A DNA stretch of 32,000 bases. Origin: Planctomycetota bacterium (GTDB lineage: Bacteria; Planctomycetota; Planctomycetia; Pirellulales; Lacipirellulaceae). The translations under genes were made by a program, and so were the position numbers. Numbering within the stretch: the first letter of the stretch is position 1; each line of letters opens with the position of its first letter. The notes beneath the pieces are model-generated. The model was not told the origin of the DNA and did no database searches. It was given only the letters and a program-made list of their open reading frames with translations. The DNA is taken from contig JAKOXH010000031.1 in NCBI GenBank assembly GCA_029781135.1, positions 112,697 through 144,696 on the forward strand. The letters run 5' to 3'. Below, piece by piece: positions 6,280-20,073 of this stretch.

Positions 6280-6310
6280 TTGACAAATTGCCACTGGACT
6301 AGTGTATAAT
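6280..6310 (+). promoter_or_regulatory. Sigma70-like promoter (TTGACA-19 nt-TATAAT), probably giving a leaderless transcript
   Basis: TTGACA at 6280-6285 and TATAAT at 6305-6310. The ATG at 6317 is 7 nt after the -10 box and has no room for an SD. Confidence 0.45.
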
Positions 6311-6316
6311 TCCAGC

Positions 6317-6577
6317 ATGTCGACAGTCGCCAGTATTCTTGATTATTACCTCGAACCGTTGGCGTCAATGATCAATCGCGAAATGGCGGAAGCGATTATT
6401 AATCGGACGCCGGATCCGCAACTTGTTGCGCGGATCGCGGTTTTGGGACAGAAAGCTGAACAGGGCACGCTGACCGATGTCGAACGCGATGAGTATCGAG
6501 ATTTGATCGATGCCGGGGACCTGATTTCACTGTTGAAGTCGAAAGCGCGACGGTTCCTCGACGAGAATCCCGCGTAG
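6317..6577 (+). CDS. Small helical protein of unknown function, translationally coupled to the HNH gene (antitoxin-like partner)
   Basis: 86 aa from ATG 6317. The stop is 3 nt before the HNH start. I recognise no domain. Confidence 0.6.
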   Translation: MSTVASILDYYLEPLASMINREMAEAIINRTPDPQLVARIAVLGQKAEQGTLTDVERDEYRDLIDAGDLISLLKSKARRFLDENPA

Positions 6578-6580
6578 CTC

Positions 6581-6976
6581 ATGGAGACATCGGGACGAGA
6601 ACTTGTGCGGCAGCGTGCCGGCGGCAGGTGTGAGTATTGCCGGCTGCCCGAAGAAGCCGACGAGTGGCCATTCCACTTCGAGCATGTGATTGCGAAACAG
6701 CACGGTGGAACCGATTCGGCCGATAACCTATGCTGGTCGTGCAGTCGCTGCAACTTCTATAAAGGTCCGAATATCGCCAGCATTGACGTTGCCACCGGGG
6801 TGATGGTCGGACTCTTTCATCCTCGCCATGATGTTTGGAAAGAGCATTTTGACGTTCGTGGCCCGCACATCATTGGATTGACTGCTAGGGGCAGGGCAAC
6901 AGTTCGACTGCTCCATATGAATGACGACCGACGTTTGGATTTACGACGTGATTTGATCGAGCGGGAAATCATTTAG
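6581..6976 (+). CDS. HNH endonuclease
   Basis: 131 aa with CEYCRLPE...FHFEHVIAKQHGGTDSADNLCWSCSRCNFYKG, a Cys4 plus H-N-H core. Confidence 0.85.
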   Translation: METSGRELVRQRAGGRCEYCRLPEEADEWPFHFEHVIAKQHGGTDSADNLCWSCSRCNFYKGPNIASIDVATGVMVGLFHPRHDVWKEHFDVRGPHIIGLTARGRATVRLLHMNDDRRLDLRRDLIEREII

Positions 6977-7011: not shown

Positions 7012-8859
7012 ATGCCGCCGGAGGACAAGAGTGCTTCGCGCAACTTCATCCAGCAAATCATCGACGCCGACCGGGCCGCCGGGAAGAACGGTGGGCGGGT
7101 ACACACGCGGTTTCCGCCGGAGCCGAACGGGTATTTGCATATCGGCCATGCGAAGAGCATTTGTCTGAACTTTGGCCTCGCGCAGGAGTTCGGCGGTAAG
7201 TTCAACCTGCGGTTCGACGACACGAACCCGACGAAGGAAGAGCAAGAGTACGTCGACTCGATTGTGGACGATGTCAATTGGCTCATCGCGGCGTTTGGCG
7301 AGACGCAAGGGTTCAGGGCTCAGGGTTCAGAGTCGACATCGGCGGCGCGAACTGAACCCCGAACCCTGAATCCTGAACCCTTGTACGCTTCGGATTACTT
7401 TCAGCAGCTTTACGATTGGGCAATCCAGCTTATCAAAGAAGGCAAGGCATACGTGTGCGACCTATCGGCGGAGGAAGTGCGCGCCCATCGCGGCACACTG
7501 AGCGAGCCAGGCAAGAACAGCCCGTATCGCGATCGCAGCGTGGCTGAGAACTTAGAACTGTTCGAGCAAATGAAGAAGGGCGAGTTCCCCGACGGCACGC
7601 GCACGTTGCGGGCAAAGATCGACATGGCGTCGCCGAACCTCAACCTGCGCGACCCCGTGATGTACCGCATCAAGCATGCGTCGCACCATCGCACGGGCGA
7701 CAAGTGGTGCATCTACCCGTCCTACGATTACACGCACGGCCAAAGCGATTCGATCGAGGGCATTACGCACTCGATTTGCACGCTGGAGTTTGAGAACCAC
7801 CGACCGCTGTACGATTGGTTTTGCCGCGAGTTGCGGATTCATCACCCGCAGCAGATCGAATTCGCGCGGCTCAACCTCACGTACACCGTGATGAGCAAGC
7901 GCAAGCTATTGCAGTTGGTGCAAGAAAAGCACGTGGCCGGTTGGGATGATCCGCGGATGCTCACGATTCGCGGCCTGCGCCGCCGTGGCTACACGCCCGA
8001 GGCAATTCGGGCATTCTGCGAGCGGATCGGCGTGGCGAAGTTCGATAGCACAATCGAAATGACGTGGCTCGAAGACGCCGTCCGCGAGGATCTCAACGAG
8101 CGGGCCCCGCGAGTGATGGCCGTGCTGCGGCCGCTCAAGGTGGTCATCACGAATTATCCCGAGGGGCAAGTCGAGCAGTTGGAAGCGGCAAACCACCCGC
8201 AGAACGCCGCGATGGGCACGCGGCAAGTGCCGTTTGCACGCGAGTTGTACATCGAGGCCGACGACTTCATGGAAGACGCGCCGAAGAAATTCTTCCGGCT
8301 CGCCCCCGGGCGCGAAGTGCGGCTGCGGTACGCGTATTTCATCACTTGCAACGAAGTGGTGAAGGATAAGGCCGGTAACATCATAGAGCTACGCTGCACA
8401 TACGACCCGGCCACCCGCGGCGGCAATGCCCCGGATGGCCGCAAGGTAAAGGGCACGATTCACTGGGTGGCGGCCCCGATGGCTGCGACGGCAGAAATTC
8501 GCGTGTATGACCATTTATTCAAGACCGAGTTTCCTGATGAGGTCGAGGGTCAAGGGTCGAGCGTCGAGGGCCAGACCAAAGTGACCAGCGCTGTATCCTC
8601 ATCCTCTGTCCCTCGACCCTCGACGCTCGACCCTCGACCCCACAGCTTCCTCGACAACATCAACCCCAATTCGCTGACCATCGTCCACGACGCCAAGCTC
8701 GAACCCTCGCTTGCTGCGGCACAGCCTGGCCAGCATTTCCAGTTCGAGCGATTGGGCTACTTCTTCACCGACCCGGTTGCTTCCAAGCCCGGCACCGCCA
8801 TTTTCAATCGCACGGCAACGCTCCGCGATACATGGGCAAAAGAAGCTGGAAAGGAATGA
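7012..8859 (+). CDS. glnS: Glutamine--tRNA ligase
   Basis: 615 aa. HIGH motif [21 protein letters not shown] (KMSKS-like), and class I GlnRS-type sequence throughout. Carries two extra low-complexity segments. Confidence 0.95.
7306..7383. repeat. In-frame hairpin element inside glnS (GGNTCAG heptamer arms)
   Basis: Arm caagggttcagggctcagggttcag, loop, then ctgaaccccgaaccctgaatcctgaacccttg. It is 78 nt, exactly 26 codons ([26 protein letters not shown]). Confidence 0.85.
8541..8640. repeat. In-frame hairpin element inside glnS (GGTCGAG heptamer arms)
   Basis: Arm ggtcgagggtcaagggtcgagcgtcgaggg, a 39-nt loop, then ccctcgaccctcgacgctcgaccctcgacc. Encodes [11 protein letters not shown]...[10 protein letters not shown]. 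Confidence 0.85.
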
Positions 8860-8987
8860 ATTCCTTGTACGGCGCGCGGTGGTAAAAGCCTCACGGCACC
8901 ATTCGAGCCGACGCGGCGGACTGGTGAGACTCGGACAATTTGGCTGGAAGGCTTGTAATTTGGTAGGGCGCGGTTACATTGCCGCCT

Positions 8988-11501
8988 ATGGATACCACCC
9001 GAATGTCACGCGCGGCATTGGCAGCGATGTTCATCGTCATCGGGTCATCGCACATTGCGACCACCTTCGCGCAAACCTTCTGGACCGCTGGCACCGGTGA
9101 CTGGAACACGGCGAGCAATTGGAGCCTCGGTGTTCCTGACGCGGGTGGCGGAACCGCGTTCGATGCGGTGATTGAAAACGGCGGTACCGCGCAACTCCTC
9201 GGCCTGCCGGCCGGCAGCGTACGACGGCTCCGCGTGGGGCGCACCGCCGGCGGCGGTCATTTGGTCGTCGATGGCGTGCCTTTGACCGTGACCGAAAACC
9301 TGCATCTCAACGAAACCAGTTCCGCGCCGGCCTCGGTGACCGTGCAAAACGGCGCCACCGTATCGTCGCCGAGCACGATCGTGGGCTATTCCAGCACTCC
9401 CAACACTGATTTCACGATCACCGGAGCAGGCACCACATTCAACGCGGCAACGCAATTTATCGTGGGAAACTCGGGCGCGGGAACTGCCTCGCTCACCGTC
9501 GACGCAGGGGCCGTGCTCACCAGCGGCACGGGCTGGGTCGGTAACGGCTCGGGAGCAACGGGTGTGGCGCTTGTCCGCAACCCCGGCTCCACGTGGTCGA
9601 CCGCCACCACGCTCACCGTGGGCAACACCGGGACCGGCACACTGACGATTGAAGACCAAGGCGTGGTATTCGTTGGTACGGCCCTTGGAATCAACAGCGC
9701 GAGCACCGTCAATCTCAACGGGGGCACGCTCCGCTTCAATACGGTCGGCGGCGCCGGCGGCCTGAGCCGCCTCAATTACACCGCCGGCACGATCCAGCTT
9801 GCCGGCAACCGCGAGATGCTGTTCGATACCACCATTCTTGCCATTTACGGCTCGTCGCCGGTGATTCCCACGGGGAAGGAACTGATTGTCGAAGGAACGA
9901 CCACGGTCCATCAGGATAAGACGCTGAGTGTGAATGGCGGTAGTTTCATTTCACAGGGCCTGCTAACCGTTGGAGCCATGAATTCCGGCAGCGGCACGTT
10001 GCTTGTTTCCTTGGCCGGTACCGCCCAGGCGAAATCTGGTGCGGTCGTCGACCAGTTCGGTTTTGTCCGCGTGAACGGTGCAGGATCGAGTTGGAACGTC
10101 ACCGGCAATCTCAACATCGCTTCCGTCACCCGCGGCGACCTGGTAATCGACAACCAGGGCAGTGTCTACGTCACCGGTGCACTGACACTTGGCTTTTCCA
10201 GCCATTTCACGCTCAATGGCGGCACGATCCGCTTCAACGGCTACAGCCGCACCATACCGTCATCATTGTTCTTCTATCCGGCGGGCACGGTTCAACTTGC
10301 CGGGGATAGGACGATTGGAGGCGATGCGGCGATCCAGGACTTCTTTGGTGCGGCACCCAACATCCCAACGGGCAAAGCGCTCGTAGTGGAAGGCACGGCC
10401 CTGCTAACCTCCACGACGCCCGTGATACTTTCGGGCGGCACCCTCGGCGCGGATACACTACTGCTCTCGCCCGCTAGCCATTTGACGACCGTGCAGCCGT
10501 CCCAAGTATCGGGGGTGGTCCTCGCCCTGGCCGGCTCCGTGATCGATACGACGAACCAGAACCTTTCGCTCGGCGATGCGGCCAAAGTGAACGGCTTTTA
10601 CAGTAATGGCACGTTGCGCGTGGGACAGTCCACTGTGACGCTTCTCGACGCCAACGACGCGGTGTTCGACTCGGCCGCGCTCGTCACGCTCGGTTCCGGG
10701 GGTAGCCCGGGGACAATGGACGCGGCCAACGGCCTGACGCTCGACTTCGGCGGCAACATCCTCGGGACGGGTACGATCAGCACGCCCAACGACATTGCCA
10801 AGCCGCTCATCGTCAATGGCCACATTACGGGCGACAGCGTCGCGCAGTCCATCACGCTCCCCGGCTACGTCAAAGGCGTTGGCACATTCGACAACGTAAA
10901 TTTCACGGGTACGTTTTCACCGGGCCTGTCGCCGACGATTCTCGCCGTGGGCAACGTCGCACTCGCGCCCACCAGTACGCTCGTAATGGAACTAGGCGGC
11001 ACAACGCCCGGCGGCGGCTACGATCAAATCCGATCCTCCGGCGCACTTGCGTTGGGCGGCACGCTGCAGGTGTCACTGATAAATGGCTTCACGCCGGCAG
11101 CCGGCGAGTCATTTAACCTGTTCGATTGGACCGGCACGAGTGGGACATTCGCCACACTCGCCCTGCCGGCGCTTGGCAGCGGCCTCGCCTGGAACACCGC
11201 GCAGCTCTACGCGACCGGCGTCCTCAGCGTAATCGGTGTCGGGCTGCCCGGCGACTACAACAACAACGGCGTGGTCGATGCTGCCGACTATGTACTATGG
11301 CGCAAGAGTCCCAGCTCTTATGGCGGCAGCCCGGCCGGCTACGACACCTGGCGCGCTAATTTCGGCCGAACTGCGGGCAGCGGCGCCAGTTCCGCGCTCT
11401 CCGTCGACACTGCGGTTCCCGAACCAACGAGTTGCGTGTTACTTTTGCTCGCCGCCTTCGTCGTAGGCGGCGTTCATCGATTGAAGAATTTCTTGGCTTG
11501 A
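8988..11501 (+). CDS. Repeat-rich beta-helix-type surface protein (autotransporter/PEP-CTERM-associated repeats) with dockerin-like module and PEP-CTERM anchor
   Basis: Signal peptide MDTTRMSRAALAAMFIVIGSSHIATTFA and an N-terminal W..GTGDWNTASNWS. Has repeated G.GTLTI..QG.V.V...L.....TVNLNGGTLRFN units, GDYNNNGVVDAADYVLWR, and a C-terminal VPEPTSCVLLLLAAFVVGGVHRLK. Confidence 0.8.
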   Translation: MDTTRMSRAALAAMFIVIGSSHIATTFAQTFWTAGTGDWNTASNWSLGVPDAGGGTAFDAVIENGGTAQLLGLPAGSVRRLRVGRTAGGGHLVVDGVPLTVTENLHLNETSSAPASVTVQNGATVSSPSTIVGYSSTPNTDFTITGAGTTFNAATQFIVGNSGAGTASLTVDAGAVLTSGTGWVGNGSGATGVALVRNPGSTWSTATTLTVGNTGTGTLTIEDQGVVFVGTALGINSASTVNLNGGTLRFNTVGGAGGLSRLNYTAGTIQLAGNREMLFDTTILAIYGSSPVIPTGKELIVEGTTTVHQDKTLSVNGGSFISQGLLTVGAMNSGSGTLLVSLAGTAQAKSGAVVDQFGFVRVNGAGSSWNVTGNLNIASVTRGDLVIDNQGSVYVTGALTLGFSSHFTLNGGTIRFNGYSRTIPSSLFFYPAGTVQLAGDRTIGGDAAIQDFFGAAPNIPTGKALVVEGTALLTSTTPVILSGGTLGADTLLLSPASHLTTVQPSQVSGVVLALAGSVIDTTNQNLSLGDAAKVNGFYSNGTLRVGQSTVTLLDANDAVFDSAALVTLGSGGSPGTMDAANGLTLDFGGNILGTGTISTPNDIAKPLIVNGHITGDSVAQSITLPGYVKGVGTFDNVNFTGTFSPGLSPTILAVGNVALAPTSTLVMELGGTTPGGGYDQIRSSGALALGGTLQVSLINGFTPAAGESFNLFDWTGTSGTFATLALPALGSGLAWNTAQLYATGVLSVIGVGLPGDYNNNGVVDAADYVLWRKSPSSYGGSPAGYDTWRANFGRTAGSGASSALSVDTAVPEPTSCVLLLLAAFVVGGVHRLKNFLA

Positions 11502-11521
11502 TCTTCGGCCTCGGAAGGAGC

Positions 11522-11644
11522 TTTCAATTCGAGCCTTTAGGCAACTTCTTTACGAACCCGGCTGCTTCCAAACCTGGCACCCCCATTTTCAATCGCGCTG
11601 CGACATTACGCGACACTTGGGCGAAGGAAGCTGGGAAAGACGAG
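11522..11644 (+). pseudogene. Detached second copy of the glnS 3' end (last 40 codons)
   Basis: Translates [40 protein letters not shown] versus the glnS C-terminus [40 protein letters not shown]. The stop is replaced by gag. Confidence 0.85.
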
Positions 11645-11695
11645 GAATTTCGGCCAATTTCATCGGCAATTTTCGTGGAACTCCCTCCCGTCGAG

Positions 11696-11704
11696 TGGTA
11701 TAAT
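11696..11704 (+). promoter_or_regulatory. Extended -10 promoter element (TGGTATAAT) upstream of the second surface-protein gene
   Basis: tggtataat is a perfect TGnTATAAT, 64 nt upstream of ATG 11768. The -35 is weak (tggaac). Confidence 0.4.
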
Positions 11705-11767
11705 CACCACCCGCTAGTGTACCGCAGCGGTAACTCGCTTTCTCGCTTTGGGAGGCAGTGGTTGGCA

Positions 11768-14700
11768 ATGATTCGTCGGCAAATGACTCGCAGTTCCGTT
11801 TTCGTAGTTATGGCATTTGCTTCGTCGCTCCTGCTGCCGAATTCGGCTCGCGCCACCAAGTTCTGGAAGAACAGTGTCACGAGCGGCAACTGGTCCAATG
11901 GAAATAACTGGAGTGCCGTCTCCGCCGCTGGGGCCGATAACGGCGGCGTGCCGGTGGCAAGTGAACAAACGCGGATCGTAAATACGGATGGCGTGGCGCG
12001 CACGGTAACGCTCGATACGAATACACCGTCGCTCGGACTCGTAGCCATCGACCTCACGGGTGCCGGTACAACAGCCAACACGCTCTCAATTCCTAACAAC
12101 AACACAATGACCGTGGGTGCCATGGCAGTGGGTGGCCACAATGGCGTCACGACCACCAACGGTCGAGGCGCGCTGACGCAAGCCAACGGCTCCGTCACGA
12201 TTAGTTCGGGGCTCGACCTGGTGGTTGGCTGGGGCGCGGGCTCCACCGGCACATACACCTTAAGCGGCGGGTCGCTCACCGCGCCACAATCGGAATTCAT
12301 CGGTTCCTCGGGAACCGGCACGTTCAATCACTCCGGGGGCACGAACACAATTTTGGCCGGCGCAATCGGCTATTTGAATGTTGGCACGTCCTCTGGCGCC
12401 ATGGGGAATTACAACCTTAGCGGCACGGGACAGCTCATCTCGAACAAATCGGAATACATCGGCGACGCCGGCGCTGGCAACTTCGTTCAAACCGGTGGTT
12501 CAAACACCATTGTGGGCACTGGCAACAGCCTGTATCTCGGATACAGCACAACAAATACTAGCCCTACCGGTGGCACGTACGCACTTAGCTCCGGCTCGCT
12601 CACGGTTAGTGGCCAAATGTACGTCGGGTATAACAAGGTGGGGGCATTTAACCAAAGTGGCGGCACAGTGAATATAAATGGCCATACCACCGAAGATCTC
12701 GTAATTAGCGGTGCGGGAAGTGCAACTGGCAGCTTTAATCAAACCGGGGGAACATTCCATGCCGAGGGACTCGTGAAGGTCGGCTACACGGGACTTGGAA
12801 GCCTCGTCATCGATGGGCAAGATTCGGACTTTTCAGCGCTTTTCATCGAAATCGGGCAGTATGGTACTGGCAATATGGTTGTTAGTGGAGGAGCTTCGGC
12901 AACTTTTAATCTGGACGTCGATCTTGCTTTCAACGGCACCGCCCATGTTACGGTGAAGGATCCCGGATCTCTCCTGCAAACAAACAGCTATCTAGTGCTT
13001 GGCAATGGCGGAGTGGGTACCTTGGATATTCAAAATCAAGGCGTTGTCAGCATTGGGACGGATTTGATTGTTCATCTCAATAGTGCGGTCAATGTGATTG
13101 GCGGCACGCTACGCCTCAACAGCATTGATACTGGAGACATGGACCGAGTGAACTATTCGTCTGGAACAATCCAGCTTATCGGTAACCGTACGGTTGGCAG
13201 CGCGTCGGGCGATGCGATCGTTTCTCACTTTTTTGGCGGCGCTCCTACGATTCCGATTGGAAAAGGGTTGACTGTGGAGGGTACGGCGACGCTTCTGACT
13301 TCTACCGTGATCGACGGCGGCACATTTTCCGTCGGTCAACTGGCGAACGCAGCCAACTTGGGAATGAATCGGGGTACATTCAACCTCACCAACCAAGCCC
13401 TGACGATCGGTGCGGGCGGAACATTCGGCAGCACGCTCGATATTAACACTGGCATGACCGTCAACGTGACCCTCGGCACCACGAACCAAGGCCTCGTCAC
13501 GGGCGACGGCGAAATCGGCGGTACGTTCACCAACGCGGCGGCCGGCGAGCTGCGCGGCGAGCCGGGAAAGTCGCTGAAGTTAACGGGCGCAAGCAACACG
13601 AACGCCGGTCAAATCAACTTGCTCGGTGGGCTCGTCGAATACACGCAAGGACTGACCAACAACGCCGGCGGCTTTATCTCGGGCAATGGCACACTGAAAA
13701 CGAACGCTCTCACCAACAGCGGTACGATGAATTTCAGCGGCCTCGCGAACATCGTCGGCGATGTCACGAATAACGCCGGTGGGAAAATCATCTCTTCCGG
13801 CGGTGGACCTACGACGTTCTTCGACGATGTCACGAATAACGGCGAGATTCGAACGACGTCCGGCTCTTTTACGGTCTTCTACGGTGCTGCCACGGGTTCT
13901 GGCACGTACACCGGGCTGGGCACGGTGAACTTCGAAGGTGATCTCAAGCCAGGGAACAGCCCGGCCGCTGTCCACTTCGACGGAGACGTCGTTCTTGGCA
14001 CAGCGTCGACACTTCGTATGGAATTAGGCGGCAGTACCGTTGGCAGCCAATACGATCAAATCAATGTGGCGGGCAAGCTCACGCTCGGCGGCACACTGGA
14101 AATAACACTGATCAATGGTTTCATTCCCACCCTAGGTCAGTCGTTTGATTTGTTGAATTGGGGAACCGTGGCCGGTGCCTTTGCATCGCTCCAATTGCCC
14201 TCGGTGCCCGGCCTCGTCTGGAACACGTCGCAGCTTAGTGCTGGAATTGTAAGTATTGTGGCAGCCGGCATTCCTGGCGATTACAACAACAACGGCGTCG
14301 TCGATGCAGCCGATTATGTGCTGTGGCGCGAGAATCCCAGCGCCTACGGCGGAAGCCCGGCGGGCTACAACACGTGGCGTACCAATATTGGCCAAACCGC
14401 GGGAAGTGGTACTGGGTCGTCCCTTGGTTTCACAGACACTTCCGTTCCCGAACCGGCTGGAATCGTGCTACTCGCAGTCGCTGCCGCCAGCCTGCTTGGC
14501 GCCCGAAAGGCATTCAGCATGTTAAGAACTGCTGCGCTAGCGTGCCTGGTTTCCTTATTGGTAACGTCGCGGTTAACGTTCGCCGGAACGGTAATCACTG
14601 CCAACTTGCCGCCCAATACGGCCATCGTCAACATCGATGCGAAGCAGGATGGCGCGGCAACTTGGAACAGCGGCCAAGACAGTTGGTTCCATCCATTCTT

Positions 14701-15637
14701 CACAGGCGGGGCCACGGGGCTGCTGCAGTACGCCATCGCCCCAGGAACGTATCAATTCCGCTTGACGAACCCTTCGCTGGCCGCAACGCAGTTTCCTGCG
14801 CTCACCGCTGGCCAACTCTCCCAAATTTTCACGGCATGGACGTATAACTCACCGTGGATCACCGACTACTTCGTTTTCGACAGTGCCGGCGCCACCAATT
14901 TTTCCGTTCCGCAAATTTTCGCGGGAGCGATTCGGCCGAGCGGACTCACCGGAGGAACCGGCTCTGCCACCGAGGCCTTCAACTTGGCCACCACGTACGA
15001 ATTCGACGATGTGATCGTCAAACAGCCCGGTGGGCGAATTACCGGCGTTCGCACGACGCTCTATACGTTCACCGCACCAGAAACGCTCACCTTTGCCGTT
15101 CCCGACAATATCCTCTCCGATAATAACGGTGGAATATCAGTCGTTATCAGCCAGGTCGCAGGCGTCGGCGTCCCCGGCGACTACAACAACAACGGCGGCG
15201 TCGACGCGGCCGACTACGTTCTGTGGCGCAACGGCGGCCCGTTAGCGAATGAAGTTGATGCACCGGGGACTGTCAACGCGCAGGATTACATGGAATGGCG
15301 AAACCGCTTTGGCAACACGAGCGGCAGCGCCGCGCTCGCGGGTCATTCAACAGTCCCTGAGCCGGGAATTGGCGGCCTCATATTCGTGCTCTGCGTTACG
15401 CTGGGAATATTCAATCGCACGGCGACACGATGCGATACGTTAGCGAATGAATTTGGAAGGAAACCAATGGCCTGCCATCGACAAAGGATACGTAAAACCA
15501 CGGGACGCGTCCTTCCGTCAACCCCTTCGAAAGCCAGCCCTTCCGTAGCTGCGGCGAACTCTCGTCTCTTAAAGCCAACGTCGAACGCGCGCTCGGTATT
15601 CATCGTACTGGATGCCGAACGTTCCTTGGAGTTTTGA
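11768..15637 (+). CDS. Dockerin/PEP-CTERM surface protein ORF: two gene-like units fused without a stop (unit B 11768-14518, unit C 14519-15637)
   Basis: GGGAGG lies 12 nt before ATG 11768, followed by signal peptide MIRRQMTRSSVFVVMAFASSLLLPNSARA. Unit B is a paralog of 8988-11501 and ends in VPEPAGIVLLAVAAASLLGARKAFS. It is followed in frame by a new signal-like MLRTAALACLVSLLVTSRLTFAG. Unit C has its own GDYNNNGGVDAADYVLWR and VPEPGIGGLIFVLCVTLG. Confidence 0.7.
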   Translation: MIRRQMTRSSVFVVMAFASSLLLPNSARATKFWKNSVTSGNWSNGNNWSAVSAAGADNGGVPVASEQTRIVNTDGVARTVTLDTNTPSLGLVAIDLTGAGTTANTLSIPNNNTMTVGAMAVGGHNGVTTTNGRGALTQANGSVTISSGLDLVVGWGAGSTGTYTLSGGSLTAPQSEFIGSSGTGTFNHSGGTNTILAGAIGYLNVGTSSGAMGNYNLSGTGQLISNKSEYIGDAGAGNFVQTGGSNTIVGTGNSLYLGYSTTNTSPTGGTYALSSGSLTVSGQMYVGYNKVGAFNQSGGTVNINGHTTEDLVISGAGSATGSFNQTGGTFHAEGLVKVGYTGLGSLVIDGQDSDFSALFIEIGQYGTGNMVVSGGASATFNLDVDLAFNGTAHVTVKDPGSLLQTNSYLVLGNGGVGTLDIQNQGVVSIGTDLIVHLNSAVNVIGGTLRLNSIDTGDMDRVNYSSGTIQLIGNRTVGSASGDAIVSHFFGGAPTIPIGKGLTVEGTATLLTSTVIDGGTFSVGQLANAANLGMNRGTFNLTNQALTIGAGGTFGSTLDINTGMTVNVTLGTTNQGLVTGDGEIGGTFTNAAAGELRGEPGKSLKLTGASNTNAGQINLLGGLVEYTQGLTNNAGGFISGNGTLKTNALTNSGTMNFSGLANIVGDVTNNAGGKIISSGGGPTTFFDDVTNNGEIRTTSGSFTVFYGAATGSGTYTGLGTVNFEGDLKPGNSPAAVHFDGDVVLGTASTLRMELGGSTVGSQYDQINVAGKLTLGGTLEITLINGFIPTLGQSFDLLNWGTVAGAFASLQLPSVPGLVWNTSQLSAGIVSIVAAGIPGDYNNNGVVDAADYVLWRENPSAYGGSPAGYNTWRTNIGQTAGSGTGSSLGFTDTSVPEPAGIVLLAVAAASLLGARKAFSMLRTAALACLVSLLVTSRLTFAGTVITANLPPNTAIVNIDAKQDGAATWNSGQDSWFHPFFTGGATGLLQYAIAPGTYQFRLTNPSLAATQFPALTAGQLSQIFTAWTYNSPWITDYFVFDSAGATNFSVPQIFAGAIRPSGLTGGTGSATEAFNLATTYEFDDVIVKQPGGRITGVRTTLYTFTAPETLTFAVPDNILSDNNGGISVVISQVAGVGVPGDYNNNGGVDAADYVLWRNGGPLANEVDAPGTVNAQDYMEWRNRFGNTSGSAALAGHSTVPEPGIGGLIFVLCVTLGIFNRTATRCDTLANEFGRKPMACHRQRIRKTTGRVLPSTPSKASPSVAAANSRLLKPTSNARSVFIVLDAERSLEF
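15407..15466 (+). pseudogene. Third, more degraded copy of the glnS 3' end (last 20 codons), fused to the end of unit C
   Basis: IFNRTATRCDTLANEFGRK versus gln[23 protein letters not shown] atattcaatcgcacggcgaca versus attttcaatcgcacggcaacg. Confidence 0.65.
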
Positions 15638-16045
15638 TTCTTCCAGCGGAATCACGATCCAGTTAACGTACGCGATCGCCACGGGCAGAAAAACGATCGG
15701 CCAGAAGTGGCTTAACAGCAGAGCCTCACCGAGGTACGCGATTGTGAGACCGATATACATGGGGTTCCGCGTGAAGCGATACGGGCCCCAAGTGACCATC
15801 TGCGAGGAAATTTTACCGGGAACCGTCGTCGTGTGAGCCCGCCAGAAAGTCACCAGTCCCCAACCGGCGACGACAACACCGACGCCTAAGGTGACGCCAC
15901 CGACGATGCTTACATCGGGCACTTGTTCCACAATTCGCAATGGGTACGCTCGTTCCACGGCGAAGCCGATCAGGTACACGAGCACGAATATCCACGGCAC
16001 GGGAAGACGTAACAGAAATCGGATTGGGTTGCGAGTGGGCTCCAT
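15569..16045 (-). CDS. Isoprenylcysteine carboxyl methyltransferase (ICMT/PEMT) family membrane protein
   Basis: ATG at 16045. Multi-TM protein with TWGPYRFTRNPMYIG and a C-terminal EE..L...FG..Y..Y...V.RW pattern. Confidence 0.8.
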   Translation of the reverse strand: MEPTRNPIRFLLRLPVPWIFVLVYLIGFAVERAYPLRIVEQVPDVSIVGGVTLGVGVVVAGWGLVTFWRAHTTTVPGKISSQMVTWGPYRFTRNPMYIGLTIAYLGEALLLSHFWPIVFLPVAIAYVNWIVIPLEESKLQGTFGIQYDEYRARVRRWL

Positions 16046-16110
16046 GATTGCGACTTCGATATGCCTGGTTCGCGGCGACACTTGGCAAGCTTACCATGGC
16101 TGAGCAATGC

Positions 16111-16229
16111 TTCGCAGGCGTCAGGCTTCAGCCTGACCAGTTTTGCGGCGGGATGCCCTATCGTCAGGCTAAAGCCTGACCTACGTTGCGTTACCAATAC
16201 TCGTACCGCAGGAACAGTTCTTGTTCGCG
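16111..16229. repeat. 119-bp direct repeat, copy 1 (two REP-like palindromes plus a remnant of the ABC gene's last 13 codons and stop)
   Basis: Over the 110 nt I aligned base by base, I counted 9 mismatches against 16925-17043, at a constant 814-nt offset. The reverse strand of 16191-16232 reads NREQELFLRYEYW*. Confidence 0.8.
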
Positions 16230-16242
16230 GTTGTAAAAGCGA

Positions 16243-16587
16243 CTAGAGTCGTTCTGCCCCAAGGATAAGCGCCAGTTGGTCGCGGAGCGTGGGAACCTTA
16301 TTCACGACGACATCCCAAACGATGTCGTAATCAACGGCAAAGTAGCCGTGAATGAGCCGGTCACGCATGCCTACGACGGTTTGCCAAGGTACTGTCGGGT
16401 GCTTATCCCGAAATGACTGCGGAATCCCCTTGGCCGCATCGCCGAGAATTTCAATACTGCGGACGAAAGCCCGGCGGCGAGTCTCATCGGCGAGAAACTG
16501 TTGCCGGTCGATGCGTTGAGATTCGACGACGAGATACTCCGTTTCGTCGAGCATGTGTTGCGCCAAATCAGTCACCGAGTTCGACAT
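16243..16587 (-). CDS. hepT: HepT (DUF86/HEPN) ribonuclease toxin of a type VII TA pair
   Basis: ATG at 16587 overlaps the mntA end by 20 nt. RX4HXY motif in GMRDRLIHGYFAVDYDIVWDVV. Confidence 0.85.
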   Translation of the reverse strand: MSNSVTDLAQHMLDETEYLVVESQRIDRQQFLADETRRRAFVRSIEILGDAAKGIPQSFRDKHPTVPWQTVVGMRDRLIHGYFAVDYDIVWDVVVNKVPTLRDQLALILGAERL

Positions 16588-16884
16588 CCTCGACCTCGGC
16601 AAGAATTCGTGGGCCGATGTAAGGGCTTAGCGACTCGGTTGTCACAAGTTCCACGCGTCGCTGCAACACGCTTTCCAGCAAATCGGCCAGGGCCATGAAG
16701 TTATCGAACGTCTTTTCACCCGCGCGAAATTCGACCAACAGATCGACGTCGCTATTTGGCTCGCATCGTTTCGCGCGAACGAACCGAATAGCCCGAGCCG
16801 GCGAACGCCGTGGGACCGGATTCGCCTCGGCTCCTGGGCGAGGCGTTGCAGCAAATCGTGTTTTTCGGTGACGGCTGCGACCAT
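16568..16884 (-). pseudogene. mntA: MntA-type nucleotidyltransferase antitoxin, interrupted by a 1-nt frameshift
   Basis: The N-terminal frame (ATG 16884) gives ...GVRRLGLFGSFARNDA. The C-terminal frame gives EPNSDVDLLVEF...RRVELVT. The frames join only if one base is added near 16762/16763. Confidence 0.75.
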
Positions 16885-16924
16885 ATCTTGATTCTAGCAC
16901 GTAACATCTGGACTTTCACGTCCC

Positions 16925-17043
16925 GATTCGTAGGTCAGGCTTCAGCCTGACCAGTTTTGCAGTGGGATGCTGTATCGTCAGACTAAAGCCTGACCTACGT
17001 TGCGTTACCAATACACGTATCGCAGGAACAGCTCTTGTTCACG
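16925..17043. repeat. 119-bp direct repeat, copy 2 (overlaps the true 3' end of the ABC gene)
   Basis: See 16111-16229. Contains gtcaggcttcagcctgac and gtcagactaaagcctgac hairpins, plus codons EREQELFLRYVYW*. Confidence 0.8.
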
Positions 17044-20000
17044 TTCGGGCAGGGCTTCGACGTCGGGGACCAGGTAGCGGTTGTCGTCGAGATCAAGGAG
17101 GATCTTGCCGCGTTCGCCGAAGTCTTGCACCTGGCTTTGGCTCCAGCGCATCGTGAATTGGCGCGGGCCGTGGGCGGTGCGGACGTCGAGCGTCAAGTGC
17201 CCAAGCTCGAGCTTGATCGAATCGACGCCCGTGACGGTTTGTAGCCAGTAGCGGCGGTTGAGGGCCTCGCGCACGAGCACGCGGGCTTCCACGGGCCACT
17301 CGTCGAGGCGCCGCACGATGCCGATTTCGTGCTCGGTGCCGTCGCGGTTCCACACGCGGAGGCTGATGTAGTCGTCCGGGTTGGTGGCCGGGAAGAGGTT
17401 GACGGCGAACACACCACGCCACGTGGTCGAGTCTCTCCGAGACTCGAACGAACTGTTAAAGTCTGGCGGTGATTTGGAATCCGCGTCTCGGAGAGACGCC
17501 GCCACATGCACTTCCATGCCGCCGAGGCGGGCGGTGTGGATACGTGTATCGTTGGGCGTGAGCCAGCGTAGCTGACTTGATTGGTTGATGGCCGACGACT
17601 CGGCCGCCAATTCGTCGGTTGAGCGAGCTTCGCCCTGGAGACGCACGAGGTTCGCGTACTGGCCGCCATGAGCGATCAACAGTTCGTGGGTGCCTTGCTC
17701 GACGAGCCGACCGCGATCGAACACCAGAATGCGATCAGAATCGCGCAAGGTCGATAGCCGATGGGCGATGGCGATGGTGGTTCGCCCGCAAGTGAGGGCC
17801 TTGAGGGCTTGCTGAATCGCCTGCTCACTTTCGGCGTCGATGTTGCTCGTCGCTTCGTCGAGCACCAGGATCGGCGGATCGTACAGAATCGCCCGGGCGA
17901 TCGACATCCGTTGCCGTTCGCCGCCAGAAAGTCCGGCACCGCGTTCGCCCAGCCAGGTATCGTAACCCAGCGGCGAGTTGAGAATGAAATCGTGAGCCTG
18001 GGCAGCCTTGGCCGCCGCGATGGCTTGTTCCGGTGTGCTTTCCGGCATCCCGTACACAAGGTTCTGCCAAATCGTACCGCGGAACAGGAACGGGTCTTGG
18101 AGCACGACGCCGATGTGCCGACGCAGCTGCCCAGAAGGCAGCCGTCGCACATCAATGCCATCGACCAACACGCGGCCTTCGCAGACGTCGTAGAACCGGC
18201 AGAGCAAGTTGACGAGCGTCGTTTTGCCGCTGCCGCTTTTGCCCACGATACCGATCGTCTCGCCGGCGCGAATTTCGAAGTCGATATCGCGCAGCACCGG
18301 CTGATGCCGCTCGTAGCCGAACGTAACGTGGTCGAAACGGATATGACCAAGGGCGGAGGGAGTGGGAGAATGGGAGAGTGGGAGAGTGGGAGAATCAGGT
18401 GAGCGGTCGTTCGAAGGGTCTCCCCCTCTCCCCCTCTCCTTGTCTCCCCCTCTATTCATCGAAGTAATTTCGGGTAAGTTCAGAGGATCGGATGGCTCCA
18501 TCACTTCCACCGGCGTATCGAGCAATTCAAATACACGTTGGCAACCGGTAAGAAAGTTAGTCAGCCACGTGGTGAATTGCGAAAGCGTAGCCAACGGCGT
18601 GTAGAACATCGCCAAGTACGCCAGGAACGCCATCAGCGAGCCGAGAGACATGGTGCCGGCAAGAACATCGCGACCGCCGACATACCAGACGATCAGGCCA
18701 CCCAAACTGAAAATGAGTTGCATTGTCGCGGAAAACGCGGCCGTCGAATAATCAACGTGCATGCGACAGGCACGCAGGTAATCGCTAATTTTGTTGAACC
18801 GGGCGAACTCGCGGTCCTCCTGGGCAAAGGCCTTCACGACGCGAATGCCGGAAAGCATGCCGGTGAGCATGCCAGCTTGTTTGGCGCTGGAATCCCAGTA
18901 GCGATAGTGCTTGGGATGGACGTGCTTCCAAAAGAACCAACTGCCGGCGATCACAAGCGGCGCTGGAATTAGCGTGAACAGCGCAAGTTTCGGGTTGAGC
19001 GTCGTGAGCATAATGCCCACAGCTGTCACCTGAACGATTTGTAGCAAGAAACCGCCCGTAATTTGGTGCAACAGGCTTTGAATGACTTCGCTGTCGTACG
19101 CCACGCGACTGGTGATCGAGCCGACTTGATGGCGGTCGTAATAGCCGAGACCCAGCATGTGGAGTTTTTCCACGAGCTTGGCGCGTAGATCGAAGGTAAG
19201 CGCCACGCCGACGCGAGTCGCCATCCGGCCTTTGGCAAAGTTGACCGCACTCAACACGAGCCGAGCGGCGGCGAGCGACGACACGACCACGAACAGGCCG
19301 AAGAACAGGCCGGGGGTGTCGGGCGAGCGTTGACCACTCTTGAGAATGTGATCGACCAGGTATTGCTGCAACTTGGGTGGCGTGAGTTCGGCGGCCACGG
19401 CCAAACACATGAGGCCGCACATCACGAAAGCAGTGACACGATACGGCCACAACATTTGCACGAGCCGAGCAAGGATGGCCTTGCGGGGAATACAGCGCGG
19501 ACAAGCTTCATTCGGCACGGGCAAGCGCTGTCCGCACTTTTCGCAGTGTGTTTTCTTGGGAGTCGCGTCTTCCTGAAACTCGACCTTGCCGTCAGTGCGC
19601 AGGTCTTCCAGGTACTTAGCCAGGCGACTGAAGCGATCGGCCTCAGTATTGGGAAAGCGGGCCAGGTCGACCCAATAGTCGTCGACGTAGGCTTGAAGGA
19701 AGCCGGAGCCAACCGCGTTTTGCGTGCGGAACTCGCGGACCTGGGAAACGGGCACATGCACAACGACGCTTGGCGCCGCAGCGCCGTTTGGTTCACCAGA
19801 TGGCGAGAGGGGGAGAGGGGGAGAGGGGGAGGATCTTGAGTGGAGCGTTTTCGACGGAATCTCCCCCTCTCCCCCTCTCCCATTCTCCCGCTCTTTGGCT
19901 GCCTCGCCCTCTTTGATCGCGGCCACATTTTCGCGCGTGGCCACGATCCAGTTCCGCTCTGGCTCGCCAGACAGCGAGAGCTCGCTGCTGGCACAGAGCA

Positions 20001-20073
20001 GCACGGGCACGCCGTTGAGACCACGACGGTCCAGTTCTTCATGAACATCCACCGGCAATTCTTCAGTAAACAT
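17005..20073 (-). CDS. Multidomain ABC exporter: N-terminal cytoplasmic domain + zinc ribbon + type I exporter TMD + NBD + C-terminal DUF1854-like domain
   Basis: 1022 aa. Contains HCEKCGQRLPVPNEACPRC, six-TM region, Walker A GKSGSGKTT, signature LSGGERQR, and Walker B ILVLDEATS. The roughly 190-aa C-terminal extension ends in ...DDNRYLVPDVEALPEREQELFLRYVYW. Confidence 0.85.
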   Translation of the reverse strand: MFTEELPVDVHEELDRRGLNGVPVLLCASSELSLSGEPERNWIVATRENVAAIKEGEAAKERENGRGGEGEIPSKTLHSRSSPSPPLPLSPSGEPNGAAAPSVVVHVPVSQVREFRTQNAVGSGFLQAYVDDYWVDLARFPNTEADRFSRLAKYLEDLRTDGKVEFQEDATPKKTHCEKCGQRLPVPNEACPRCIPRKAILARLVQMLWPYRVTAFVMCGLMCLAVAAELTPPKLQQYLVDHILKSGQRSPDTPGLFFGLFVVVSSLAAARLVLSAVNFAKGRMATRVGVALTFDLRAKLVEKLHMLGLGYYDRHQVGSITSRVAYDSEVIQSLLHQITGGFLLQIVQVTAVGIMLTTLNPKLALFTLIPAPLVIAGSWFFWKHVHPKHYRYWDSSAKQAGMLTGMLSGIRVVKAFAQEDREFARFNKISDYLRACRMHVDYSTAAFSATMQLIFSLGGLIVWYVGGRDVLAGTMSLGSLMAFLAYLAMFYTPLATLSQFTTWLTNFLTGCQRVFELLDTPVEVMEPSDPLNLPEITSMNRGGDKERGRGGDPSNDRSPDSPTLPLSHSPTPSALGHIRFDHVTFGYERHQPVLRDIDFEIRAGETIGIVGKSGSGKTTLVNLLCRFYDVCEGRVLVDGIDVRRLPSGQLRRHIGVVLQDPFLFRGTIWQNLVYGMPESTPEQAIAAAKAAQAHDFILNSPLGYDTWLGERGAGLSGGERQRMSIARAILYDPPILVLDEATSNIDAESEQAIQQALKALTCGRTTIAIAHRLSTLRDSDRILVFDRGRLVEQGTHELLIAHGGQYANLVRLQGEARSTDELAAESSAINQSSQLRWLTPNDTRIHTARLGGMEVHVAASLRDADSKSPPDFNSSFESRRDSTTWRGVFAVNLFPATNPDDYISLRVWNRDGTEHEIGIVRRLDEWPVEARVLVREALNRRYWLQTVTGVDSIKLELGHLTLDVRTAHGPRQFTMRWSQSQVQDFGERGKILLDLDDNRYLVPDVEALPEREQELFLRYVYW
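18355..18453. repeat. In-frame hairpin element inside the ABC gene (TMD-NBD linker)
   Basis: Arm ggagggagtgggagaatgggagagtgggagagtgggagaat, loop, then tctccccctctccccctctccttgtctccccctct. Encodes RGGDKERGRGGDPSNDRSPDSPTLPLSHSPTPS. Confidence 0.8.
19805..19894. repeat. In-frame hairpin element inside the ABC gene (N-terminal domain)
   Basis: Arm gagagggggagagggggagagggggagg, a 27-nt loop, then tctccccctctccccctctcccattctccc, with about 20 bp of perfect pairing. Encodes GRGGEGEIPSKTLHSRSSPSPPLPLSPS. Confidence 0.85.

Follow-up and report, generated by a model that had tools for sequence, protein, structure and literature searches.

The 3' end of glnS, the gene for glutaminyl-tRNA synthetase, is probably an insertion hot spot at which cassettes have been inserted serially. 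We consider it very likely, as a general model, that each insertion replaces the tail of the gene. Foreign segments of 0.9-3.7 kb would recombine into the final ~40 codons of the gene, and each would bring cargo genes along with a glnS tail of its own, drawn from another glnS lineage. The incoming tail would become the working end of the gene, while the previous end would be pushed downstream as a dead copy; since every insert would come with a replacement end, glnS would never be broken. New cassettes would enter next to glnS, so that an array would read from youngest to oldest. In the 32-kb stretch of DNA analysed here (the window), this order would be copy 1 of the tail, cassette A, copy 2, cassette B-C and copy 3.

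Three copies of the glnS end in the window

The glnS gene (7012..8859, + strand) is an intact open reading frame whose translation is a glutaminyl-tRNA synthetase of 615 aa, and a protein search gave 120 GlnRS proteins with Pfam tRNA-synt_1c domains and 75-89% identity to it. Self-comparison delimits copy 1, the working last 40 codons plus stop (attL-like; 8737..8859, +), whose C-terminal peptide agrees with the GlnRS family consensus over a 23-residue stretch. Copy 2, a displaced 40-codon tail (attR-like; 11522..11644, +) identified by sequence comparison and by its tail counterparts in relatives, begins 20 nt past the stop of gene A (11501). It aligns to copy 1 without gaps at 79% identity over 119 nt, far beyond chance (tblastn E = 1.6e-20), and the longest identical run shared by the window copies is 14 nt. 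GAG stands in place of its former stop, and the invariant FERxGY motif contains two changes, R to P and Y to N. Two relatives have tails of their own in the corresponding place upstream of their B orthologues (L081, 12323-12412; L082, 8912-9031); one still has TAG where the stop should be, and in the other TAG is one base out of register. Copy 2, too, formerly had a stop at its end. Copy 3, apparently the oldest displaced tail, is of a short type that starts from IFNR (15407..15466, +) and encodes the C-terminus of gene C, in frame. Its alignment to copy 1 (15407-15466/8) gives 73% identity over 62 nt; taken alone it is weak (tblastn E=0.003), but the orthologous C genes of two relatives back it up with the same glnS-like stretch, reaching the glnS stop position. 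On re-measurement, the coordinates and counts of an earlier note on this DNA hold, the 20-nt gap after gene A included, as does its observation that the last ~20 codons recur, more degraded, at the end of C. It had also described an 11-residue run as unchanged despite silent differences in 8 codons: the protein is indeed unchanged, but the silent changes fall in 7 codons (8 nucleotides).

Between copies 1 and 2, 26 of 120 bases are different, 19 of them at third codon positions. By codon, 17 are identical, 16 are synonymous and 7 change the amino acid, in addition to the stop (TGA to GAG), with differences by codon position of 6/3/20. Synonymous sites are saturated (pS 0.65), yet first and second codon positions are only 9% different (pN 0.087, dN/dS 0.06). 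We simulated a null in which one copy decays neutrally, and it was rejected for this pair (P=0.0005) as well as for three further tail pairs from other genomes (P=0.0045, 0.0055 and 0.028). For working versus displaced long tails, dN/dS was 0.14 in L085, 0.08 in L166 and 0.095 in L162, and a fifth pair, from L173, presented the same bias (pS 0.61, pN 0.033). Divergence between tail copies is of the kind found between working glnS genes. The earlier note had argued that most of the divergence between copies 1 and 2 arose in functional coding sequence and that it reflects two glnS lineages instead of a local duplication decaying neutrally; the low dN/dS now estimated for the tail copies bears out the first point, and the rejected neutral pattern the second. 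Third-position identity does not tell which tail of a pair is native: nearly all pairs are saturated at synonymous sites, so that 120 nt are too few for the purpose.

Cassette 1 (8860..11521, +), which on comparison with L081 and L082 occupies the position that varies among relatives, consists of spacer 1 (8860-8978) and gene A (8979 or 9003-11501), encoding a T5SS/PEP-CTERM-associated repeat surface protein. It is followed, after copy 2, by spacer 2 (11645..11767, +), which a three-way alignment shows to be orthologous in L081 and L082, and by cassette 2 (11768..15406, +), which orthologue comparison shows to be common to these two genomes. Cassette 2 contains the PEP-CTERM surface-protein genes B (11768-14518, +) and C (14519 onward, +), with 55% and 82% amino-acid identity, respectively, to their L081/L082 orthologues. 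Spacer 2 holds a conserved TGGTATAAT (11696-11704) and a GGGAGG ribosome-binding site; the former is probably the B promoter, although a simple sigma-70 scan did not call it. Scanning 8600-12000 for sigma-70 promoters and terminators gave nothing above shuffles. On comparison, the two spacers proved unrelated, in line with the earlier note, which had seen no similarity between them.

Behind copy 3 lies a window-specific insert (15464..17004) where L081 and L082 have only 108 nt. It carries a PEMT/ICMT gene (15569-16081, -) and a HepT/MNT toxin-antitoxin pair (16243-16900, -), the latter between REP-like hairpin doublets (16120-16186 and 16934-17000). By synteny, the variable interval is bounded on the right by a conserved anchor, an ABC transporter/DUF1854 gene (17005..20073, -). 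On the other side, just 5' of glnS, there is a small free-standing nuclease gene, of the HNH type in the window and GIY-YIG in L172.

Cargo and tails at related loci

We collected related loci by protein search plus exact-protein look-ups, which gave 10 lineages with DNA. Among the matches listed by a contig search with full-length GlnRS, none was closer than 70%, and among those listed by a metagenome search with the tail peptide, only L139 and L162 were added as double-tail loci. Detached-tail arrays are present in 7 of the 10 related Lacipirellulaceae loci, with direct repeats of the glnS 3' end flanking inserts in the window, L081, L082, L085, L166, L173 and L174. The cargo between detached tails is unrelated from case to case and found in both orientations: surface proteins, phospholipid genes, toxin-antitoxin pairs of the HepT/MNT and HicAB types, a methyltransferase and a nuclease/phosphatase. 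At the position of gene A, L081 has a 41%-identical paralogue and L082 three unrelated genes, not paralogous to A, including phospholipid-synthesis genes. In L085, L166, L173 and L174 the tails surround the methyltransferase, toxin-antitoxin and nuclease/phosphatase genes, unrelated to surface proteins. L167 represents an empty site, with glnS followed by a 137-aa ORF and MotB/MotA and no extra tail; L171 and L172 are also free of tail copies. The conserved downstream anchor in the relatives is either the ABC/DUF1854 gene or MotB/MotA. Two lengths of displaced tail recur, one of ~120 nt starting near (PG)QHFQFE and the other of 45-60 nt starting from (V/I)FNR.

The order of the units is consistent with entry next to glnS. 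The B-C cassette and copy 3 are common to three lineages (the window, L081 and L082), while the cassette adjoining glnS varies. In L085, a 0.9-kb methyltransferase cassette between 29-bp perfect repeats lies in front of an older toxin-antitoxin cassette of the L173 type (72.7% over 952 nt); the working glnS of this genome has an atypical end, EQVRP, and the displaced copy retains the family-typical EAAKD. Besides, the Exo_endo_phos cassette shared by L174 and L166 has a pS of 0.40, below those of the flanking glnS (0.55), MotA (0.52) and MotB (0.64), which points to horizontal movement of that cassette. The synteny check proposed earlier therefore speaks for insertion, given the different cargo in close relatives, the empty site and the nested insertion with its perfect repeat. 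The earlier suggestion of nested copies with the oldest most decayed is also borne out: copy 3 is the most decayed and the glnS-proximal cassette the variable one. To the question of whether glnS is directly followed by ICMT anywhere, the answer is in no relative, the ICMT gene itself being part of the window-specific insert.

These comparisons leave little room for a local tandem duplication of glnS tail, spacer and surface-protein gene in which the redundant tail decayed neutrally. It would account for the tail-spacer-gene-tail-spacer-gene layout as the product of an unequal crossover, and A and B are indeed paralogues (40% amino-acid identity over their C-terminal halves), so that an old tandem duplication contributed to the surface-protein gene family. 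That a glnS end can duplicate in tandem is shown by L005, an unrelated genome with a plain 302-nt tandem duplication of it. Nevertheless, we consider this explanation improbable in the extreme, as it is already contradicted by the substitution pattern (the simulated P value and the saturated synonymous sites beside 9% change at first and second positions), by the unrelated spacers, and by the cargo of the relatives: phospholipid-synthesis genes replace A in L082, and four other lineages carry genes that have nothing to do with surface proteins. Neither outcome that the earlier note had named as refuting insertion, neutral tails or a tandem tail-plus-gene duplication, was found.

The protein-like conservation of displaced tails could also arise if they were functional, either translated or acting as regulatory DNA or RNA elements, and kept by selection. 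dN/dS is low in five pairs, copy 2 reads in frame into B with no stop between, and the displaced tail of L005 lies within an ORF. Against this, copy 2 has lost its stop and altered R and Y in a universally conserved motif, the orthologous displaced tails of L081, L082 and L174 are full of frameshifts and indels, and the one called L085_c comes after an in-frame stop and is without a start codon. Moreover, downstream of copy 2, B is equipped with a ribosome-binding site, a start and a signal peptide of its own, and there is no Rfam match. Selection on displaced tails is hence a very unlikely source of the pattern, and we keep to insertion with tail replacement.

Exchange of working tails and possible routes of insertion

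The sister genomes L081 and L082 carry different first cassettes, and their glnS tails differ by 24.2%, compared with 8.3% for the gene body (Fisher p=5.6e-7), with the jump starting at FQFE. Working tails were swapped along with the first cassette. Between these two genomes dS is 0.46 for glnS and 0.09 for B, and the synonymous divergence of the tails is extreme (pS 0.85). Horizontal exchange affects the final 40 codons of glnS, whose synonymous sites are saturated even when sister genomes are compared; this part of a common phylogenetic marker consequently fails to track the organism.

One way to explain such divergence would be a nuclease encoded 5' of glnS that makes double-strand breaks and leads to repeated repair-linked replacement of the glnS 3' region, synonymous change in the tail then reflecting selection for cleavage-resistant target variants. 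A variable nuclease gene does adjoin glnS in several lineages, and the tail pS of the sister genomes would fit. The case is entirely circumstantial: 1.8 kb separate the nuclease gene from the tail, and L081, L082 and L085 have arrays and lack the gene. We therefore give this explanation hardly any weight.

For insertion by site-specific recombination, the crossover would lie in or near the codons of a 10-residue candidate core (8815..8843, + in copy 1), at the same position as the 29-bp perfect repeat of L085. Within a genome, the core is nearly or fully identical between working and displaced tails (34/36 in L081, 28/29 in L082 and 29/29 in L085), and in L081 and L082 the displaced tail is badly decayed outside it. 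The putative core is, however, not conserved at synonymous sites across lineages, which is awkward for a sequence-specific recombinase. A single clean crossover between L081 and L082, whether at the core or at the left edge, does not fit by itself, because the entire working tail differs and not just its core-distal part, as do the displaced tail and ~15 nt beyond its stop; this model needs later homologous exchange. Looking by eye for a shared motif just after working stops or just before displaced tails, we found nothing convincing.

The gene for such a recombinase would lie at another place in the genome or on a helper element. A Pfam scan of all large ORFs in the window, together with searches for tRNAs and Rfam families, found no integrase, transposase, tRNA or Rfam family, in agreement with the earlier note, which had seen no integrase in it. 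The same scan of all ORFs in ~10 cassettes from 7 lineages found no integrase, resolvase or transposase. Integrases were also absent from the best 25 of 165 families among 137 ORFs downstream of glnS in ~100 diverse genomes, a scan of the commonest families that a single integrase could escape; pre-screening for tyrosine recombinases by regular expression proved unreliable. No cognate integrase-bearing element occupies the same site in the 10 related loci, and viral contigs, GenBank phages and PLSDB plasmids gave only complete glnS genes (e.g. in D6-like phage-plasmids), with no bare tail adjoining an integrase. The attL/attR-like pattern of serial insertion with a replaced 3' end that the earlier note had proposed is thus supported, with 'integrative element' deduced from anatomy, since no cassette yielded an integrase.

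Much of the pattern could come from homologous recombination through the tails, and the main rival dispenses with a dedicated recombinase altogether. The conserved glnS tail would serve as portable homology. A tail-cargo-tail structure, once founded by illegitimate joining or by a short tandem duplication, would spread between related genomes through RecA-type recombination, either by Campbell-type integration of circles excised between the repeats or as linear DNA whose two arms both pair with the recipient tail in a double crossover. Several observations suit it: the tails are homologous over their full length, divergence forms a gradient into the glnS body (the contrast in dS between glnS and B), the entire working tail is replaced, no integrase was found in the window or the cassettes, and a plain tandem duplication of the glnS end exists in L005. 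Core identity within a genome could likewise mark a crossover or heteroduplex region. On the other hand, the homology is short (<=125 nt, and ~60 nt for the methyltransferase cassette), 15-25% diverged and saturated at synonymous sites, which makes for poor substrates; this scheme does not predict two recurrent tail lengths or the glnS-proximal entry rule, and it needs an unexplained founding event for each new cargo. While we regard it as a possible but doubtful route, our best guess, held with slightly less than even confidence, is a site-specific recombinase acting in trans on cassettes that would be integrase-less, CIME-like or satellite-like units.

The glnS locus would offer an essential gene as a safe, conserved landing pad, at which displaced ends record the order of arrival. 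Mobile elements of planctomycetes are poorly known, and our literature search found no paper treating glnS as an attachment or integration site. If cassettes move in trans or by homology alone, they would form a gene-capture platform without a resident integrase, of a kind missed by integrase-based annotation pipelines.

Comparison with known insertion systems

The closest parallel is the icd 3' end of E. coli, where e14 and phage 21, as recounted in PMC13626634 (citing Hill et al. 1989), supply a replacement end, leaving the icdC pseudogene at the far end and ends that differ mostly synonymously. As in that account, the glnS arrays have the 3' end of a housekeeping gene as target, a supplied replacement end and a C-terminal fragment left at the far side; we find the direct repeats, the intact target with mainly silent end differences and the unoccupied site. 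In contrast to e14, a 15-kb prophage with its own integrase, the glnS inserts measure 0.9-3.7 kb, are stacked two or three deep in a planctomycete host, and contain no integrase or recombinase gene, as is also true of the window.

The cassettes also resemble CIMEs and the tandem accretion at ICE/IME sites (the ICESt1 family, at the fda 3' end), in which integration genes are lost and attL/attR kept; att-bounded elements without integration or transfer genes are what we observe. For CIMEs the cognate integrase-bearing ICE/IME is known, whereas none was found in any of the 7 glnS arrays, and the glnS repeats are long coding tails of up to ~125 nt instead of short cores.

SCCmec and pseudo-SCC islands of staphylococci insert serially at the 3' end of rlmH (orfX), with direct repeats of ~15-20 bp that include the last codons; some of their units lack recombinase genes, and the serine recombinases responsible, ccr, are known. 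The glnS arrays share the serial 3'-end insertion, the repeats with last codons and the recombinase-free units, but no counterpart of ccr was found in their cassettes.

Integron arrays and CALINs are made of small units of one or few genes, with toxin-antitoxin cargo and the newest unit at the proximal site, and the glnS arrays are alike in all three respects. In an integron, intI and attI stand beside promoterless cassettes that share one orientation and end in attC hairpins. The glnS arrays differ in having neither intI nor attC-type structured sites, in cassettes that face both ways and have their own promoters or upstream regions, and in repeats made of the coding sequence of an essential gene; we accordingly rejected an identity with integrons.

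The glnS arrays would be a variant of the 3'-end insertion with tail replacement already known from other systems. Tentatively, they may also represent an undescribed cassette system, in which small integrase-less cassettes with cargo such as toxin-antitoxin pairs, a methyltransferase or surface adhesins use a spare glnS end of 45-125 nt as attachment module and are added, stacked and traded among Lacipirellulaceae genomes in trans or by homology. Such a system would be a functionally integron-like gene-capture platform on the coding end of an aminoacyl-tRNA synthetase gene.

Organization of the region downstream of glnS

In the window, an intact glnS (7012-8859, plus strand), encoding a 615-aa GlnRS, ends in the functional tail (copy 1, 8737-8859) and is directly followed by spacer 1 (8860-8978) and gene A, which starts at 8979 or 9003 and ends at 11501. 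After A comes a displaced tail (copy 2, 11522-11644), separated by spacer 2 from gene B (11768-14518), whose reading frame carries on into gene C (from 14519). Another displaced tail (copy 3) lies at 15407-15466. Next, all on the minus strand, are a PEMT/ICMT gene (15569-16081), a HepT/MNT toxin-antitoxin pair and an ABC/DUF1854 transporter gene. The segments between glnS tails are called cassettes here, spacer 1 plus A being cassette 1 and B-C cassette 2. A, B and C present signal peptides and PEP-CTERM-type ends, and homologues of the three are annotated as T5SS/PEP-CTERM-associated repeat proteins. Judging by the homologues of its GlnRS, the organism belongs to the Lacipirellulaceae, a planctomycete family. 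No tRNA gene, Rfam family or recombinase was found in the 32 kb, in agreement with the earlier note, which had seen no integrase there.

Gene B has no stop codon (14480-14520). Compared with two syntenic relatives, the loci L081 and L082, a deletion of about 160 nt has removed its last ~17 codons, the stop and the intergenic region, bringing B in frame with C; the outcome is either a fused B-C protein or a damaged B. The frame of C runs through copy 3 and then ~60 codons past the stop of its orthologues (15440-15637), where it overlaps the convergent PEMT/ICMT gene at its 3' end. This gene and the HepT/MNT pair form a 1.5-kb segment unique to the window (15464-17004) that separates copy 3 from the ABC gene; L081 and L082 have 108 nt there. 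Two 67-nt REP-like doublets (16120-16186 and 16934-17000, 93% identical) flank the pair, and the REP-like hairpin GTCAGGCTnnAGCCTGAC occurs six times in the window (1837, 4482, 16120, 16163, 16934 and 16977), with none expected by chance. Regarding spacer 2, the extended -10-like TGGTATAAT (11696-11704) is kept in the window, L081 and L082, as is the surrounding GAGTGGTATAATCACCACCCG. This region is likely the promoter of B; a simple sigma-70 scan did not call this candidate in spacer 2.

Cassette content in relatives and order of insertion

We retrieved ten related loci with DNA by exact-protein look-ups of the closest GlnRS matches. L081 (GlnRS at 89% to the window) carries a 973-aa paralogue, a decayed tail and the B-C orthologues. 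At the same place, the likewise syntenic L082-84 (86%) have three unrelated genes, namely a small ORF, a CDP-alcohol phosphatidyltransferase-like gene (a weak, sub-threshold match) and a CTP_transf_1 cytidylyltransferase, followed by a decayed tail and B-C. In L085 (85%), a methyltransferase precedes a 17-codon tail, a HepT/MNT pair homologous to that of the window and a 40-codon tail; such a pair also forms a tail-bounded cassette in L173 (80%), ending in a long tail. L166 (82%) has a trypsin-like gene with HicAB, a short tail, an Exo_endo_phos gene and a long tail, and L174 (78%) has an Exo_endo_phos gene and a long tail. Extra tails are absent from L171 (82%) and L172 (79%), the latter with a Y1_Tnp gene adjoining the ABC gene, and L167 (81%) is an empty site with a 137-aa ORF followed by MotB/MotA. 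The right-hand anchor kept across relatives is the ABC/DUF1854 gene or MotB/MotA. The earlier note had raised the question of whether the ICMT gene directly follows glnS elsewhere, and it does so in no relative. Outside Lacipirellulaceae, two related metagenome contigs, L139 (819-1712) and L162 (6001-6909), have a 142-aa ORF between two 91%-identical tails, and in an Ignavibacteriota genome (L005, 3871-4292) the glnS end is simply duplicated in tandem over 302 nt.

Since B-C and copy 3 are common to the window, L081 and L082, they are the older unit, and the variable position is the one adjoining glnS. The toxin-antitoxin cassette of L085 can be aligned to the L173 type at 72.7% over 952 nt, and L085 is an L173-type structure to which a methyltransferase cassette was added next to glnS. 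A 29-bp perfect repeat, GCCACGCTCCGCGACACCTGGGCCAAAGA, flanks this newest L085 cassette on both sides. Rightward of it, the functional gene ends in an atypical EQVRP-stop and the displaced copy in EAAKD-stop, the family norm. The equivalent position in the window (8815-8843) is the candidate crossover core. Between the functional and displaced tails of the same genome, the core matches at 34/36 positions in L081 and 28/29 in L082; outside it, the displaced tail is ~55% identical, with indels. Displaced tails fall into a long class (~120 nt, starting near the (PG)QHFQFE codons) and a short one (45-60 nt, starting at the (V/I)FNR codons).

Divergence and origin of the tails

The gap-free alignment of copies 1 and 2 shows 79% identity in 119 nt; for copy 3, the identity is 73% in 62 nt. 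The codon tally of the earlier note was reproduced (17 identical, 16 synonymous, 7 replacements), plus a stop-to-Glu change in copy 2, where GAG corresponds to a former TAG stop by alignment with counterparts in two relatives. Among the 26 differences across the 40 sense codons, 19 are at third positions, and the Nei-Gojobori values are pS 0.65, pN 0.087 and dN/dS 0.06. In a simulated null that started from identical copies, one evolving neutrally and the other under strong purifying selection, the mean number of third-position differences was 11.3 of 26, and 19 was reached in only 0.05% of the runs. Tandem duplication is a minor alternative. A synonymous bias was found in all long-tail pairs amenable to scoring: L085 (dN/dS 0.14, P=0.0045), L166 (0.08, P=0.0055), L162 (0.095, P=0.028) and L173 (pS 0.61, pN 0.033). 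In the 40-codon tail, synonymous sites are saturated for almost all genome pairs. The tails very probably derive from different glnS lineages and move together with their cargo.

Because replacements in copy 2 fall at positions invariant among 120 GlnRS (R to P plus Y to N within FERLGY, as well as D to N and T to A), we take it to be a dead copy, only slightly decayed; that the displaced tails are functional is a minor possibility. Copy 3 is weak on its own; the C orthologues of two relatives have the same glnS-like stretch, which there extends to the glnS stop position.

The sister genomes L081 and L082 have 93-95% identical flanks and different first cassettes. Their functional tails differ by 24.2%, vs 8.3% for the glnS bodies (Fisher p=5.6e-7), the jump beginning at FQFE. 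Besides, dS is 0.46 in glnS vs 0.09 in gene B; the whole glnS, beyond the tail alone, looks to have been swapped by recombination in one of them. The Exo_endo_phos cassette shared by L174 and L166 has a lower pS (0.40) than the surrounding glnS (0.55), MotA (0.52) and MotB (0.64), which indicates movement of the cassette between these lineages after their split.

Possible mechanisms and known systems

No recombinase gene was found in about ten cassettes or within 10 kb of glnS at any locus, the core is not kept at silent sites between lineages, and one clean crossover does not account for the L081/L082 comparison. Hence, we consider two alternatives. In the first, to which we give slightly less than an even chance, the cassettes would be moved by a site-specific recombinase acting in trans; the 29-bp repeat, which has hardly any homology around it, and the two recurrent tail lengths fit it. 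In the second, which we consider less likely, homology between the tails would itself drive the recombination; the divergence gradient into the glnS body between L081 and L082 agrees with it.

The 5' side of glnS is a second variable spot. The gene directly upstream is a small nuclease, HNH in the window (6581-6976, within the stretch 6302-6976) and L173 (9567-9968) and GIY-YIG in L172 (9397-9738); in its place, L081 (6883-7393), L082, L171 and L174 have unrelated ORFs of 71 and 102 aa. This spot might be linked to tail turnover, and nuclease-driven turnover is kept as a minor explanation. Within glnS, two in-frame palindromic insertions (7306-7383 and 8538-8642; arms of 28-38 nt, 86-87% complementary, with heptamer-like GGGTCGA units) contribute ~50 residues to GlnRS. 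They come and go, given that GlnRS lengths among relatives span 561 to 615 aa, and they resemble the palindromic elements whose insertion into coding genes preserves the frame.

Accretion arrays are already known, as is insertion at the 3' end of a gene by elements that supply a substitute for it. For instance, e14 integrates in the 3' end of icd with a replacement end, leaving an icdC fragment (PMC13626634), and CIMEs are decayed, integrase-less elements that accrete in tandem at gene 3'-end sites (PMC5704250). In their anatomy, the glnS arrays match the former in the insertion in a 3' end with its replacement, and the latter in the stacked accretion of integrase-less units. Several features are new compared with these systems: glnS is the target and the host group is a new one, the small cassettes of one to three genes consistently lack an integrase, and the tail modules are long and coding, with the consequence that an essential gene exchanges its final 40 codons horizontally.
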